Virus record (IMG/VR): IMGVR_UViG_2565956719_000006 | Strand: one strand, 5' to 3' | Origin: a virus | Taxonomy: Duplodnaviria > Heunggongvirae > Uroviricota > Caudoviricetes | DNA length: 10,371 nt | Shown: positions 1,616 to 8,343 of the stretch, piece after piece | How positions within the stretch are numbered: the stretch's first letter is position 1 | Layout: each line of letters starts with the position of its first letter | Program-made: the position numbers and the translations under genes | Notes under the pieces: model-generated | What the model saw: only the letters and a program-made list of their open reading frames with translations | Databases searched by the model: none | What the model was told of the DNA's origin: nothing

Positions 1616-2233
1616 TTGATCAGTACGGAACCAATGTCATTAGTAGCACAAATAGGACAGTATTCGTGGTGTATCACAGTAGTTAGCGTCTGCTTAGTTT
1701 TCATTGGATGGCGAGTTGCGTACAATAATTCTGTAAAACTGGCGACACGTTCTGAATCGAAATCAATTATTGATGCTATTTCAAAGTTAGTTATTGAAAT
1801 TTCTGATATTTCTTCTAACTATTGGCTCAGTCAGACAACTCAACCTAAAATTAGAGCATCAAAGCATCGATTGTTAAGGTTGCAAAAGGATAGAACAAAG
1901 GCTTCTGTTTCATACTTGTTAACTATCTTGGCTAAAGCTCAACAAGTTTCCAAACTGATTTGCATTTTGGAAAGCAGAGGACTGTATATACCTGACGAGG
2001 TGTTCTCATCTGTACTAGAGAAAGCAACTCTGGATTGTGAGGTCGCTCACAAGCTTTCAGATGCCGATCGCCCGGTTAAAGCACAAGAAGTAATTGATGC
2101 TTGTATGGGAGTTATCGAAGCGTTACATACTTCTTTTCAAAGGTACCACCCTCCCAAAAAGGATCGTACCTTTATGCAAAGGTTAAAAATTTGGTTTCAA
2201 ACAGTAGACGATTGGCATAATGACTTAAAATAA
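1616..2233 (+). CDS. Membrane-anchored hypothetical protein (one N-terminal TM helix plus charged soluble domain), third gene of the operon
   Basis: 205-aa ORF starting at TTG 1616 with AAGAGG 6 nt upstream (alternative ATG at 1634 has no SD). Hydrophobic segment YSWCITVVSVCLVFIGW near the N-terminus. Starts 11 bp after the upstream stop. Its 3' end overlaps the integrase 3' end by 9 bp. Confidence 0.65.
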   Translation: MISTEPMSLVAQIGQYSWCITVVSVCLVFIGWRVAYNNSVKLATRSESKSIIDAISKLVIEISDISSNYWLSQTTQPKIRASKHRLLRLQKDRTKASVSYLLTILAKAQQVSKLICILESRGLYIPDEVFSSVLEKATLDCEVAHKLSDADRPVKAQEVIDACMGVIEALHTSFQRYHPPKKDRTFMQRLKIWFQTVDDWHNDLK

Positions 2234-3397
2234 AGCCTTTTTATCCTTGATACTTGCCCTCCCATCATACTCTTTCAAGTATTGTCCATAGTGCCTGAAT
2301 AACATTTCAGGCCCTTTATGGCCCATTTGAGCCGCAAGCCAAAACAGGTTTGCTCCCCGGCTGATATGGCTGGTGGCGAATGTATGCCTGGTTTGATATG
2401 GGTTTCTGTAACGAATACCTGCTTTTCGCAATGTTGGCACCCATGCTTTTTTCCTAATTGCATCAGCACTTGCCCAGGGTTTATTGGTCTTTGGATCTTC
2501 AAAGACAGTAGCATCCTTCATGAATGTAAATGGCTTCTGGTTTATCAACGCCAACATTGCTTCTTCAGTCAGTTCAACTTTACGGGTACCGGCTTTTGTC
2601 TTTGTTCCTTTGATAACTCCGACAACACTTGCGCTCTGAACATGGGCTGTTTTTCCAACAAAGTCGATATCATGCCATCGTAGGGCACATAATTCAGAAC
2701 TACGCAGGCCTGTATGTATGGCGAACCGGAACAGATTTTCCCATTGTTTGTTTCCGGCTGCTGCTAGTAATGCATCAACTTCTGCTGGTGATAGCGGATC
2801 AACCACATAGCTGCTTTCTGCTTCTGACTTATCACTTTGGTAGCGCGAAGCTGTTACTAACGATACGGGGTTAATTTGAAGTACCCCATCGGTCACGGCT
2901 TCATCAAGTGCTGACCGTAGGAAAGATAACTGGTTGCGAATGGTTTTTAAGGTTGTTTTCTGGCTTTGAATCCACGCTTTCAGGGTTGCTGGTGTTAATT
3001 CACTTGCAGGGCAAATGTGAAGTGAGGCTAACGCACTACGGCATTTTTTATAGCCACCAATCGTAGAGGGTGAAAGTTTTCTTGTTTCGCAGATTTCAAG
3101 ATATTCGTCCAGGTACATCTTTACCGTTTTGCTTGCAGCAGCATTACCAAAAATTTTCAAACGAGCAGAACGGGGAAAATATTCTGCATAAATGAATGTT
3201 CCCCTTTCGATCTTATTATGGATTTCGCCGAGTGTACGCTCGGCGTATTTAATGTTCTTTGGTGTTACTTCCAGATTGGAAAGCGGCTCACGACATCTAA
3301 CTCCTTTGTAGGTGAAAGTTATATTGATCGTTTCTCCCTGGTGGTGTTTCCTGATTGTTACGCCGCGCGGTAGTTTGAGCAGTTTTGTCTGGCCCAT
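2225..3397 (-). CDS. int: Tyrosine-type site-specific integrase with N-terminal arm-binding (DUF3596-like) domain
   Basis: 390-aa ORF with GAGG SD. N-terminus LPRGVTIRK...ITFTYKGVRCRE is arm-domain-like. Catalytic box residues are present (TGLRSSEL; HxxR in YQTRHTFATS; LAAQMGHKGPEMLFRHYGQY with the terminal Tyr). Confidence 0.95.
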   Translation of the reverse strand: MGQTKLLKLPRGVTIRKHHQGETINITFTYKGVRCREPLSNLEVTPKNIKYAERTLGEIHNKIERGTFIYAEYFPRSARLKIFGNAAASKTVKMYLDEYLEICETRKLSPSTIGGYKKCRSALASLHICPASELTPATLKAWIQSQKTTLKTIRNQLSFLRSALDEAVTDGVLQINPVSLVTASRYQSDKSEAESSYVVDPLSPAEVDALLAAAGNKQWENLFRFAIHTGLRSSELCALRWHDIDFVGKTAHVQSASVVGVIKGTKTKAGTRKVELTEEAMLALINQKPFTFMKDATVFEDPKTNKPWASADAIRKKAWVPTLRKAGIRYRNPYQTRHTFATSHISRGANLFWLAAQMGHKGPEMLFRHYGQYLKEYDGRASIKDKKALF

Positions 3398-3576
3398 TTT
3401 GCAACCTCACTAAGATCAATCCACCTCTCCTTAACGCCTTCAACCTTTAAAACCTGAACACCTTCACGCCAAACACCGCGCTGTACACGTTTGTTTATTG
3501 CTTCAGGAGTTTCGCCAGTTTCTTTGCAATAAGTTGAGATAGGAACACAATCGAGGTTCAGCATACGTTTCTCCAT
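3358..3576 (-). CDS. xis: Excisionase-like small DNA-binding protein (DUF1233/Xis-like)
   Basis: 72 aa from ATG 3576 (MEKRMLNLDCVPISTYCKETGETPEAINKRVQRGVWREGV...). Overlaps the integrase start by 40 bp, the usual xis-int arrangement. An upstream ATG at 3603 would give 81 aa. Confidence 0.7.
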   Translation of the reverse strand: MEKRMLNLDCVPISTYCKETGETPEAINKRVQRGVWREGVQVLKVEGVKERWIDLSEVAKWARQNCSNYRAA

Positions 3577-3605
3577 TATCCCGTCTGCACACGGGAGCAA
3601 CATTA

Positions 3606-4472
3606 TTAACGAATAGTGTCGTTACTTTGAAGTACAGCAAATGCCATTAATACTTCTAAAGTATATCTTCTATAAAATTTAACAAAACCAACATAGAAAA
3701 CATAGACGAAGAAAAAGCTAAGCATTATTGAAAGTAAACTATAAAGATAATCACTATGAGTACATAATCGATAAATAAAGGTTGGAACTGATACCCAAAA
3801 TGAAATTATAAAGATTAAACATATGTTTCTGCAAAAACCATATAATGCAACATAGTTTTGAATTTTTGTTTGATGTTGTTTTGAAAACTCATAAACATAA
3901 TGATATGCCAATCTGAAGAGATCATCATCAAGTCCGTTTTTATCTTGTAATAATTGGCGATTTGTTATGAACTTTTTCTCATAACCTTCTTTGATCATTA
4001 ACCATGTTGTATTAGCTAAATGAAATGGTAGAGATTGAGAATAACATAGTTTTTGTGTTATAAAATCCCATAGTATTATTGGACATAATACGCATTTGAT
4101 TATGCGATTCTTTATTTTTGTTTTTTTATCAGCGCTTCTCTCATCGCATGATGGGCTACAAATGCTTTCTGAGGTATCTATCAATTTTTTAAATAGATAT
4201 TTGGAAGGATATCCTAATTCTTTATTCATGTATTTTTCGATAAAAAATGCTGACGTGATAGAAATAAAATGTCCAGCTATATAAGATATAATAACTATTG
4301 AAGCGTAGTTCAAAATGCCAAAGATTTGACTTTGACCTCTGAGCAATTCACTTAAGTCAATAACAATATCTAGATCGAATGTCAAACCACAGAAATACAT
4401 TAATAGGATAAAAAAACCACCTGGTATTAAATATCCAAGAAAGTCATAGAATGAGAATGGATTTTGATTCAT
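3606..4472 (-). CDS. Polytopic inner-membrane protein of unknown function (AT-rich moron)
   Basis: 288 aa from ATG 4472, preceded by GGAGAG SD (the ORF-track start at 4496 is 8 codons upstream). About 5-6 hydrophobic helices (e.g. FLGYLIPGGFFILLMYFCGLTF, ICLIFIISFWVSVPTFIY, LYSLLSIMLSFFFVYVFYVGFV). Visibly AT-rich compared with neighbours, with an AT-rich 108-bp upstream spacer. Confidence 0.7.
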   Translation of the reverse strand: MNQNPFSFYDFLGYLIPGGFFILLMYFCGLTFDLDIVIDLSELLRGQSQIFGILNYASIVIISYIAGHFISITSAFFIEKYMNKELGYPSKYLFKKLIDTSESICSPSCDERSADKKTKIKNRIIKCVLCPIILWDFITQKLCYSQSLPFHLANTTWLMIKEGYEKKFITNRQLLQDKNGLDDDLFRLAYHYVYEFSKQHQTKIQNYVALYGFCRNICLIFIISFWVSVPTFIYRLCTHSDYLYSLLSIMLSFFFVYVFYVGFVKFYRRYTLEVLMAFAVLQSNDTIR

Positions 4473-4580
4473 TGTTGCTCTCCAATAATTTTTCAATTTG
4501 TAATATAACCTATATCTATATGTTAATAAATTACTTATATGTTCTTTTATGGCAGAGTTTGAATTCGTACGTGCTGATTT

Positions 4581-5105
4581 TTACGACTCAGTTAACTCTT
4601 TAAAGCGTTCCATAAACATCCCATAGGTATGGCCTGGCGACAGTGGAATAACTTTGAACATCTCTGTTGCCGGGATACCTTCCAGTACGGGCCAGAAAGA
4701 GCCATCATCAAGCCCGAGATCGCGGCGTTCGGTTGCCAGCATGATGAGATCGGCATATTTCACGGGCGTACTCATAACCGGGGGTAACCCGTATTTCTCA
4801 CGGATTACGGCGTCTATTTTTTCTTCCATCCGTTTATAGTCAGGAAGAAGGCGTTTCAGTGGCGCCGGGATGTCCTGGCAATACGCTTCTGTTGCATCAT
4901 GCATTAACGCTTCAAAAGCAAATTCCTGCGGTACCAGTTGGCTGCAAAGCACCGCATGTTGGGCGACGCTGTAGAAATGTGAAAGATGTCCTGCAAAGCG
5001 ACAGATATTTGAAAGAGAAACCGCGATATCGTTAATAACGATGTCGTCTTTATTTATCCTGTCATAATAAAAATGCTTCCCGGAAAAAGTTTTAATAAAT
5101 GACAT
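4581..5105 (-). CDS. yfdR: HD-domain phosphohydrolase (YfdR-like, 5'-deoxynucleotidase family)
   Basis: HD motif context HLSHF...ALMHDATEAY. ATG 5105 has a GGAG SD; in-frame GTG starts at 5117 and 5132 are alternatives. Symbol is from my recollection of the E. coli K-12 CPS-53 yfdP-yfdQ-yfdR cluster (120/274/178 aa), which matches the sizes and order here. Confidence 0.8.
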   Translation of the reverse strand: MSFIKTFSGKHFYYDRINKDDIVINDIAVSLSNICRFAGHLSHFYSVAQHAVLCSQLVPQEFAFEALMHDATEAYCQDIPAPLKRLLPDYKRMEEKIDAVIREKYGLPPVMSTPVKYADLIMLATERRDLGLDDGSFWPVLEGIPATEMFKVIPLSPGHTYGMFMERFKELTES

Positions 5106-5199
5106 TTTGTTCTCCACGTATATGCGCTGCACCGCGCTGAATTCTGGTAAAAGAAAGCCCTCACCATCCGGCGATTATTGAGTCAATTACGTTTCCATA

Positions 5200-6953: not shown

Positions 6954-7466
6954 ATGGGAGCGATTTATGTTAAACGTTTGATTCTGTCGGTAGCACTGAT
7001 AATACCGATAGCATCCAATGCTTCTGATGCTTTGAACCAGCCGAGCAGTAGTCTAAATGATGGTGTTGAGACTTTTTTTATTTCCTGCTTTGATATGCCT
7101 CAGGAAACAACTACTGATATGGACGCTTGTCAGAGAGTTCAGTTAGCTCAGGTTAGTTGGGTTAAGAATAAGTATTCGGTGGCCGCCCTGAATCGTTTGA
7201 AACAAGACAACAAGGATGATCCACAGCGTCTGCAGGAATTAACTGCTTCTTTTAACGCGGAAAGTGAAGCTTGGACAGAATTAATTGAGAAAGCGTCAAA
7301 GTCCGTCCAGGTTGATTATGCAGGAGGAACTATAGCTGGCACTGCAGTTGCATCACGTCAAATTGGTCTTCTGGAATTACAATCCCACGATATCTGGGAG
7401 CACTGGCTACGATTCGAGGACTCAACTCCTCCTCTTTTGCCAGAACCAAAGTTCAAATCTGAGTAA
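6954..7466 (+). CDS. Secreted/periplasmic protein with Sec signal peptide (possibly DUF1311/LprI-like), moron
   Basis: 170-aa ORF with SD GAGGGG. N-terminus KRLILSVALIIPIASNA|SDA is a typical signal peptide. Two Cys in the mature N-terminal part. Own intrinsic terminator downstream. Confidence 0.75.
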   Translation: MGAIYVKRLILSVALIIPIASNASDALNQPSSSLNDGVETFFISCFDMPQETTTDMDACQRVQLAQVSWVKNKYSVAALNRLKQDNKDDPQRLQELTASFNAESEAWTELIEKASKSVQVDYAGGTIAGTAVASRQIGLLELQSHDIWEHWLRFEDSTPPLLPEPKFKSE

Positions 7467-7668: not shown

Positions 7669-8343
7669 TTAGGCTTTGATTTTGTATCTTCTTGGTTTTC
7701 CTGAGAAAATCACAGTACCAATTATAGAGCAATTACCGTTGATCTTAATGTAAGGCTCAGGCCAGTTTGGGTTTAACGCTTTGAGATAACGCTGTGTCCC
7801 ATCTTCTATCAACCTTTTGAAGGTGGTTTCACCTGTATCGTGCATCAATGCAATAACGTCGTCACCGTGGCAGGCAGGTACTTCAGGATCGACAAAAATC
7901 ATGTCTCCCGGGCGGTACTCATCAATCATTGAATCACCTATCACCCGCAAGATATAAGTCATTTCCCCACAGGGTACAGGGCAGGGATACGTTTCTGCTG
8001 TGCTCAAATCAACCTCAGAATATCCAACTTCTTTCCATGCTCCGGCCTGTACCCATGATATGACAGGGACTAATGTGATTTGTTTATTAGTGATTGAAAC
8101 ATCAGGTTTTTTTGTGATGTTCGTTGTCTGGTGTTCTTGATCGAGCCATCCGACAGGCAGGTCGAAACATTTTTCGATGTGTCGTGCCATGCTGTCACCG
8201 ATATTTTTAGTAGCACCATCTCCCATAAACCTGCTGGTCTGGGTTGGCTCGCGATCAATCATAGTGGCAAAGGAAGAATTCCCGCCAACACCATCTCTCA
8301 GTTTTCTGGCGTTAGACCGCCGGATGTCATGGATTGTTTTCAT
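7669..8343 (-). CDS. CI-like phage repressor (N-terminal HTH, C-terminal S24 LexA-like autopeptidase)
   Basis: 224 aa. C-terminal domain has catalytic Ser in VIGDSM and Lys in TFKRL, the LexA/CI S24 signature. Divergent from the cro-like gene. Confidence 0.9.
   Translation of the reverse strand: MKTIHDIRRSNARKLRDGVGGNSSFATMIDREPTQTSRFMGDGATKNIGDSMARHIEKCFDLPVGWLDQEHQTTNITKKPDVSITNKQITLVPVISWVQAGAWKEVGYSEVDLSTAETYPCPVPCGEMTYILRVIGDSMIDEYRPGDMIFVDPEVPACHGDDVIALMHDTGETTFKRLIEDGTQRYLKALNPNWPEPYIKINGNCSIIGTVIFSGKPRRYKIKA

Follow-up and report, generated by a model that had tools for sequence, protein, structure and literature searches.

The 10,371-nucleotide stretch of Caudoviricetes DNA analysed here (the window; IMG/VR virus record IMGVR_UViG_2565956719_000006) carries a strongly AT-rich gene for an inner-membrane protein at 3606-4472, beside the excision genes of an E. 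coli prophage. An earlier note, made from the letters of the window, had placed this gene between xis and the early-left genes, and its neighbours are indeed yfdR upstream and xis 2 nt downstream. It forms a self-contained accessory cassette (a moron), exchanged horizontally, of a CPS-53/lambdoid-type prophage. From its context, an anti-phage role in conflict between phages is the fairly probable function of its product. The features on which the argument leans are as follows.

3606..4472, minus strand: coding sequence of the membrane protein, found as an open reading frame (ORF) with its translation (288 residues; ATG at 4472, TAA at 3608-3606); a Csx27-like inner-membrane protein with four transmembrane (TM) helices, identical to RefSeq WP_001075212.1 ('hypothetical protein') and assigned to phrog_12528.
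4473..4580, minus strand: AT-rich spacer of 108 bp (GC 0.26) that separates the yfdR stop from the ATG of the membrane gene.
4480..4483, minus strand: Shine-Dalgarno sequence GGAG, 7 nt before the ATG at 4472; read from the minus strand, ...ATTATTGGAGAGCAACAATG.
4502..4530, minus strand: weak sigma-70-like promoter candidate (TTTATT-17 nt-TATATT; 8/12 matches) from a relaxed scan.
4581..5132, minus strand: yfdR-like HD-domain 5'-deoxynucleotidase (phrog_318, E=4e-108; weak Pfam YfbR-like match; 4581-5105 in RefSeq).
3358..3603, minus strand: ORF of the excisionase gene xis (phrog_2917, E=8e-45; UTI89 annotation), immediately downstream.
2225..3397, minus strand: tyrosine integrase (Pfam Arm-DNA-bind_2 and Phage_integrase), which together with xis defines the slot.

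The GC content of the membrane gene is 0.284 (0.215 at third codon positions), while that of xis is 0.467, int 0.441, yfdR 0.460 and yfdQ 0.461. A sliding profile shows a trough of 0.26-0.31 over 3600-4650, and the sharp shift in composition relative to int/xis and yfdR that had been remarked on is plain (0.284 vs 0.44-0.47). The ratio of nonsynonymous to synonymous substitution rates (dN/dS), calculated against alleles in the same slot at 78-85% identity, was 0.16-0.23, and by this ratio 3606-4472 is a real gene under selection. It is scarcely credible that it is instead a decaying, functionless AT-rich remnant or an annotation artefact filling a variable region. WP_001075212.1 is 'hypothetical' in every public annotation source, with no name, and AT-richness this strong might cast doubt on a long ORF. 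However, long chance ORFs are disfavoured in AT-rich DNA because stop codons are themselves AT-rich, and against decay stand the dN/dS values, 659 clusters of homologs with invariant residues and a confident structure prediction. A TTG start at 4496 was rejected, as it would add eight unconserved residues across the Shine-Dalgarno sequence; the family alignment begins at MNQNPF, which backs the ATG at 4472. The window sequence is identical to a prophage in E. coli UTI89, S88, APEC O1, IHE3034 and the type strain ATCC 11775.

The gene has, as described before, its own AT-rich upstream spacer (108 bp, GC 0.26) and a good Shine-Dalgarno sequence (GGAG, 7 nt from the ATG). The spacer marks the upstream limit of the cassette and offers the sole room for a gene-specific promoter, yfdR being the last conserved early-left gene upstream of it. 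By a standard consensus scan the spacer has no promoter, and the gene has no intrinsic terminator before or after it; the TTTATT-17-TATATT candidate fails that scan, and such matches come easily by chance in AT-rich DNA. The membrane gene runs in the same direction as the early-left genes yfdP-yfdQ-yfdR and as xis/int. The long-ORF xis ATG (3603) lies 2 nt past its stop, and the RefSeq xis start is at 3564. Within the gene, a palindrome with a 5-bp stem (CGCATTTGATTATGCG; 4091-4106) has a terminator-like score on both strands and is probably a chance feature of AT-rich DNA.

In K-12, prophage CPS-53 has the order yfdP-yfdQ-yfdR-yfdS-yfdT-ypdJ-torI(xis), so the earlier statement that yfdS/yfdT hold this slot was correct. 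The yfdS/yfdT/ypdJ genes lie in the same place, from yfdR to the excisionase, but encode unrelated small soluble proteins. K-12 nucleotide homology to the window ends at 4586, where yfdR has its 3' end. In prophages whose upstream neighbour differs, the junction is at 4485, immediately ahead of the Shine-Dalgarno sequence; where the downstream neighbour differs, the sequences part at about 3562. With unrelated cargo in the slot and breakpoints on both sides (4485/4586 and about 3562), the locus is a cassette replacement, as had been proposed. The cassette is not flanked by inverted or direct repeats, and neither a tRNA nor an Rfam family was found; the lack of repeats and tRNA at its edges indicates spread by recombination, not transposition.

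Among 5426 complete E. coli genomes, yfdR is present in 2971 and the membrane-gene cassette in 205, with an identical membrane-gene sequence in at least 177. Other occupants of the slot in yfdR-bearing prophages are yfdS/yfdT, DUF551 with a 428-residue protein, a methyltransferase pseudogene, a PAPS-reductase-family gene with Ea22/Eaa genes, and another allele of the family with a PrtN-type excisionase after it. In this prophage group the slot represents the variable 'ea-like' region. A survey of 77 viral contigs, together with three phage or genome records, placed the gene next to xis-int, on its upstream side, for alleles of about 100, 85, 78, 52 and 50% identity, and the xis/int modules concerned are of two unrelated kinds. 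The integrase, itself in two unrelated clusters, is the second gene downstream at most lambdoid-type viral loci. The alleles are carried by E. coli, Salmonella and Citrobacter-type prophages and by Klebsiella phages, and the upstream neighbour varies.

Two other prophages carry further cargo of note. In E. coli CB6837 (L184, 5727-6299) the family allele and a PrtN-type excisionase are followed by a protein with a Panacea domain, a hallmark antitoxin domain of toxSAS and other toxin-antitoxin modules. In E. coli 2010C_5028 (L188, 3756-4634) a PAPS-reductase-family gene stands downstream of yfdR, followed by Ea22/Eaa-type genes; phage genes of the PAPS-reductase family are often tied to DNA modification.

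The membrane protein belongs to a large family. Its residues 1-288 match positions 1-288 of the phrog_12528 profile (E=8e-174), which has no assigned function and is the only PHROGs match of all 113 aligned homologs. An exhaustive HMMER search recovered 659 clusters at 50% identity (369 with E<=1e-10), nearly all full-length proteins of 270-300 residues, from Proteobacteria, Bacteroidota, Bacillota, Chloroflexota, Acidobacteriota, Gemmatimonadota and other phyla. No Pfam domain was found in the window protein or the 113 members, no functional family emerged from their Pfam, NCBIfam and PHROGs annotation, and ten longer relatives carry no additional (fused) Pfam domain. There was no homology to a housekeeping transporter or to a phage structural or lysis protein, any of which the earlier note would have taken as telling against its reading. 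Members are AT-richer than their flanks at 97% of 76 genome loci (by 9.5 GC points on average) and at 100% of 73 viral loci (by 16). AT-richness is therefore not peculiar to the window locus; it is a family-wide signature of an ever-moving accessory gene.

Hydropathy places four strong TM helices at about residues 12-34, 50-77, 208-232 and 243-266, in a 2+2 arrangement with a K/R-rich, hydrophilic helical domain of about 130 residues (approximately 78-207) between TM2 and TM3. The five to six helices first proposed were not sustained, since hydropathy, an AlphaFold2 model and positive-inside analysis all give four; the surplus probably reflects an amphipathic helix at 35-46 and a weakly hydrophobic segment at 123-143. 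The model, built on 113 homologs, is all-helical, with a predicted local distance difference test score (pLDDT) of 90.5 and a predicted template-modelling score (pTM) of 0.89. Across the 113 homologs the net charge is +5.6 in the central domain and about +1.0 at the C-terminus, while the TM1-TM2 and TM3-TM4 loops are net negative; by the positive-inside rule both termini and the central domain are cytoplasmic. A Foldseek search of the model gave no significant solved or viral structural match, and the predicted fold is novel.

The family has no known catalytic motif, in agreement with the earlier note, which had not foreseen strongly conserved motifs of the family's own: NPFSxYDFLGYLIPG, SYxxGH, GYPSKYL, YHY..H..QNYVALYGFxR and KFYRRFTLE. 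Residues F6, Y14, G18, Y64, G67, E79, R215 and K265 are invariant in the alignment, and D10, H68, S74, P89, S90, H191, H200, N206-F213 and E273 are nearly so. Conservation is sharply one-sided, averaging 2.93 bits in the cytoplasmic halves of the four TM helices but 1.17 bits in their periplasmic halves (Mann-Whitney p=8e-14), with 0.5-0.7 bits in the periplasmic loops. From this asymmetry, the protein would appear to act at the cytoplasmic face of the membrane.

The two-plus-two layout, the cytoplasmic insert between TM2 and TM3 and the cytoplasmic C-terminal tail are shared with the MotA/PomA/ExbB/TolQ stators, and the top Foldseek matches were MotA/PomA/ExbB, although none was significant (best E 0.42, TM-score about 0.2). 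Homology to MotA/ExbB/TolQ was rejected on this ground and because Pfam MotA_ExbB matched 0/113 members and no MotB/ExbD-type partner recurs; the likeness is one of topology only. In a single case, on a Bacteroidota-like contig, an ExbD-family gene lies 480 bp upstream of a member (L165, 7153-7518), probably by coincidence. A holin or lysis protein was rejected as well, as the gene is far from any lysis module, the product has 288 residues with a large cytoplasmic domain, and there is no PHROG lysis annotation.

RexB, the CRISPR accessory pore Csx28 and the superinfection-exclusion (Sie) proteins P22 SieA, T4 Imm and HK97 gp15 are likewise small to medium polytopic inner-membrane accessory products of prophages or defence loci for which action at the membrane has been proposed; lambda RexB, too, has four TM helices. 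No sequence, profile or fold similarity was found to RexB, SieA/SieB, Imm, gp15, Csx28 or PADLOC systems. RexB requires RexA and Csx28 requires Cas13b, whereas the window protein has no conserved partner, and its large conserved cytoplasmic domain is lacking from RexB, Csx28 and the Sie proteins.

A weak but specific similarity links the family to Csx27. The window protein matches the PADLOC Csx27 model PDLC01605 (E=1.4e-5, 23.6 bits), with residues 6-268 aligned to positions 4-188 of the 206-position model, from TM1 to TM4. The same model is matched by 77 of the 113 members (best 2e-10), the type VI-B 'tm_4' model by 22 and NCBIfam CAS_Csx27 (NF040557) by 17 (best 2e-6), all with weak scores; the window protein has no match to NF040557 at E<=0.01. 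No other membrane family recurs among the 113 members in the PADLOC or NCBIfam libraries. Since only Csx27 models recur in two independently curated libraries, true distant homology is favoured over hydrophobic bias, and these profile matches argue for a family distantly related to Csx27. The earlier note had recognised neither this relationship nor the size of the family and its spread over many phyla.

The window protein and Csx27 have in common four predicted TM helices, those of the Csx27 superfamily being present in the window protein by hydropathy, AlphaFold and positive-inside analysis, and immunity-related neighbourhoods. Csx27 has about 200 residues and a short TM2-TM3 connection, while the window protein (288 residues) has about 80 extra residues in its central cytoplasmic domain and is stand-alone and phage-borne, unlike Csx27, which is an accessory of subtype VI-B1 CRISPR-Cas13b. 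The window and the UTI89 locus hold only prophage genes, with no cas13b or CRISPR array, and no cas gene recurs beside family members in 75 genome loci. Classification as Csx27 proper was therefore rejected: cas13b and a CRISPR array are absent, the protein is about 80 residues longer, and it fails the NCBIfam model. Metagenome contigs were also scanned for Cas13b loci with a type VI-B direct-repeat consensus. PspCas13b-like loci (1090-residue effector) were found without a recognisable Csx27; the sole nearby 'membrane' ORF was a spurious antisense frame with no family match.

In E. coli, Csx27 acted as a repressor of Cas13b interference, with an effect of up to 10^5-fold (10.1101/092577). In PMC7642515, Makarova et al. 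2019 are cited as placing Csx27 in a four-TM family of predicted single-stranded DNA channels, and as linking that family to natural-transformation (DprA/ComF-like), ubiquitin-system and WYL-HTH genes and, for one subfamily, to DNA-modification genes. Among 147 immediate neighbours in the 75 genome loci, no DprA/ComF-like, ubiquitin-system or WYL neighbour was recurrent; restriction-modification (R-M) or DNA-methylase genes adjoin family members at four loci (L016, L081, L173 and L174).

These data bear on superinfection exclusion at entry, by which an inner-membrane protein would block translocation of incoming DNA without killing the cell, like P22 SieA, T4 Imm and HK97 gp15. A channel for single-stranded DNA, as proposed for the Csx27 family by Makarova et al. 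2019 (cited in PMC7642515), would fit interference with DNA passage, and a single prophage inner-membrane gene with no partner, in a classical moron position, is what such a factor would look like. However, the periplasmic loops and TM halves that would face injection are the least conserved parts (0.5-1.5 bits), and the conserved residues all face the cytoplasm. Sie proteins form narrow, fast-evolving families, unlike this one with its near-invariant motifs across Proteobacteria, Bacteroidota, Bacillota, Chloroflexota and other groups, and searches of PHROGs, Pfam and PADLOC gave no similarity to a known Sie protein. Exclusion at entry is thus unlikely.

Further evidence on function comes from the genomic neighbourhoods of relatives. 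The 280-residue protein WP_000193205, also of phrog_12528, is 42% identical to the window protein over its full length and occurs in 289 of 5426 complete E. coli genomes, compared with 205 for the window allele. Its gene lies in P2-like phages between those for portal gpQ and replication protein gpA, on the strand opposite to the neighbouring phage genes. The gpA-gpQ interval is the P2 old/tin anti-phage hotspot of Rousset et al. 2022 (PMC9122126), whose Table S5A has more than 160 entries for the cargo set with WP_000193205; the set does not appear among the systems described there as tested. At 8/8 loci a gene for a 165-residue DUF4760 protein lies 39 bp upstream of the P2-like member on the same strand (for example L003 5448-6843 and L162 4464-5843), which suggests that the two form a two-gene unit in P2-like phages. 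Thus WP_000193205 sits in the cos-proximal Peduoviridae hotspot with a DUF4760 partner, whereas the window gene sits beside lambdoid xis-int with no such partner; both are uncharacterised prophage accessory cargo in variable regions.

BLAST clustering and Pfam/PADLOC scans of the 147 immediate neighbours in 75 genomes revealed no conserved operon partner, the commonest neighbouring Pfam family accounting for 4/147, and the lack of such a partner implies that the protein works alone. Individual neighbourhoods are informative. One member lies within a type I R-M/AbiE operon (hsdM-hsdS-[member]-x-AbiEi-like-AbiEii-x-hsdR; L016) and another at the end of a Dcm-Vsr-MvaI/BcnI group (L081). Others adjoin AbiH (L168) or DpnII (L173), lie 4 kb from Hachiman in a conjugative-element-like region (L170), or belong to a phage accessory unit beside a BglII R-M system (L174). 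By simple tally, a recognised defence gene lies within a few genes in about half of the approximately 16 contexts inspected singly. The accessory (moron) position is thus seen in the xis-proximal slot of two prophage lineages, in the P2 old/tin hotspot and in islands of R-M and abortive-infection (Abi) genes. A distant member also occurs in a run of small co-directional genes (L167, 7187-16867; NADAR, RraB, NTP_transf_6, acetyltransferases, TfoX_C and DUF4440) that resembles a chromosomal integron cassette array.

The same neighbourhoods bear on the suggestion that the gene benefits the phage itself, as an early gene on a pL-type early-left transcript encoding a counter-defence or host-takeover membrane factor, in an echo of the repression of Cas13b by Csx27. 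Its co-direction with yfdP-yfdQ-yfdR and xis/int, the lack of terminators, its weak own promoter and a stop codon 2 nt from the long-ORF xis start would all suit such a gene, as would the ea/Ea22-type early accessory and PAPS-reductase-like genes that hold the slot elsewhere and the size of the Csx27 effect in E. coli (up to 10^5-fold; 10.1101/092577). However, bacterial R-M/Abi operons and the vicinity of AbiH and Hachiman, where distant members are found, are places of defence and not of counter-defence; the P2-like and L174 members stand in separately oriented accessory units, as lysogen-expressed morons do; and E. coli has no Cas13b to repress. This role for the membrane protein is distinctly unlikely.

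Two Bacteroides members lie inside capsule operons, tightly coupled to a PIN_8 nuclease or to a 635-residue patatin phospholipase (L074 and L078). Such surroundings might point to an envelope enzyme of lysogenic conversion, acting on an inner-leaflet lipid or a lipid-linked glycan precursor to alter the cell surface, which could affect adsorption. The Tyr, His, Glu, Arg, Lys and Asn residues that cluster, invariant or nearly so, at the cytoplasmic membrane interface form an enzyme-like pattern, about one in ten of the diverse genome loci has a glycosyltransferase, epimerase or WecG neighbour, the two Bacteroides operons are themselves capsule glycosyltransferase operons, and K-12 CPS-53 carries the conversion genes gtrABS. 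Set against this, no enzymatic partner recurs (the top Pfam neighbour being 4/147), and there is no similarity in sequence or fold to GtrA, acyltransferases, Wzx/Wzy or any membrane enzyme. The close coupling to a PIN nuclease or a patatin in the Bacteroides loci has the look of a conflict module inserted there, and capsule loci are AT-rich landing pads for foreign genes. An envelope enzyme is accordingly very unlikely.

A function in conflict between phages is suggested by several properties taken together: the gene is stand-alone, mobile and AT-rich, it occupies prophage slots, the P2 hotspot (already validated for defence) and R-M/Abi islands, and it has a probable distant kinship with Csx27. 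The earlier guess of a superinfection-exclusion or abortive-infection factor is consistent with this context, by association. As the conserved surface is exclusively cytoplasmic and conservation extends across phyla, an Abi-type effector is favoured over a periplasm-facing block to injection. A membrane effector of the abortive-infection type, shielding the lysogen from other phages, is the likeliest single mechanism, though on balance somewhat doubtful as a specific proposal, and the gating mechanism is one that we infer. On this model, a stand-alone inner-membrane protein with both termini in the cytoplasm would guard the lysogen against other phages. Its conserved cytoplasm-facing module, made up of the N-terminal motif, the cytoplasmic ends of TM1-4 and the helix before TM3, would sense an intracellular infection cue or a partner, and sensing would then alter membrane permeability or energisation. 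More tentatively still, phrog_12528 might be a free-standing, widespread version of the Csx27 module, a lone membrane immune protein of novel fold that would read an infection cue at the cytoplasmic face and respond by a permeability change or a block to the passage of nucleic acid.

Several points weigh against an anti-phage role or its mechanism. The searchable literature holds no phenotype for any family member, so the role is one of guilt by association; literature and supplements on WP_001075212, WP_000193205 and DUF4760 yielded one catalogue entry and no experiment. The P2 hotspot also holds non-defence cargo such as partition systems and toxins (PMC9122126). One member lies between fabB and the thr operon, a neutral context (L163), and capsule or glycosyltransferase neighbours are present in about 10% of genomes. 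The sole experimental datum on Csx27 is the repression of Cas13b, which is silent on pore formation. Invariant Tyr, His, Glu, Arg and Lys on one face would fit a membrane enzyme too. Finally, co-direction with the early-left genes, the lack of terminators and the weak promoter may mean expression during lytic growth and not in lysogeny.

A membrane moron beside xis-int is familiar, and candidate defence genes without an assigned function are numerous. What is new is the placing of this E. coli gene in a large, unnamed, structurally novel family that ties together prophage slots, the P2 hotspot, R-M/Abi islands and Csx27. Prophage morons and hotspot cargo have already yielded new anti-phage systems; if phrog_12528 is indeed a free-standing Csx27 module, characterising its E. 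coli prophage member would establish a new single-gene anti-phage system, carried by about 9% of complete E. coli genomes, and would explain the contribution of Csx27 to Cas13b immunity. The gene also offers a tractable E. coli entry to the Csx27 family, whose role in type VI-B CRISPR immunity has been without an explanation since 2017. It is a single gene, found in well-studied pathogenic strains (UTI89, S88, APEC O1) and the type strain, with a confident fold and invariant residues to mutate. Should the family not be defensive, AT-richness, solitary occurrence and conservation confined to the cytoplasmic face across its members would still call for explanation.

The window holds other cargo besides the membrane gene. 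Beyond int, up to the chromosomal junction, lies a plus-strand module of three genes (363-2233; ORFs 363-1274, 1279-1605 and 1616-2233). Their products are a 303-residue protein with a weak match to HATPase_c_2 (histidine-kinase-like ATPase), a 108-residue STAS-like DUF4325 protein and a 205-residue member of phrog_30059, and none of the three has a PADLOC match. The module looks like a second cargo, possibly an anti-sigma/anti-anti-sigma-style switch or a candidate defence system. In the near-identical prophages L084-L117 the gene beyond int (third from the membrane gene) varies, falling into clusters of 205, 129, 594 and 266 residues, which makes the int-distal edge a second variable cargo slot of the prophage group.

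On the other side of the slot, a plus-strand ORF of 170 residues (6954-7466) begins with a signal-peptide-like segment and weakly matches the LprI lysozyme-inhibitor family (E=0.006). It opposes the flanking early-left genes and lies just left of a cI-like repressor gene (7669-8343), as another moron-like insertion, in the position where lambda carries rexAB/sieB-type genes. The minus-strand segment 6123-6810 is locally GC-rich (0.52-0.57) and contains yfdP and a RefSeq frameshifted pseudogene (UTI89_RS28885), where the ORF list has a single frame of 226 residues.

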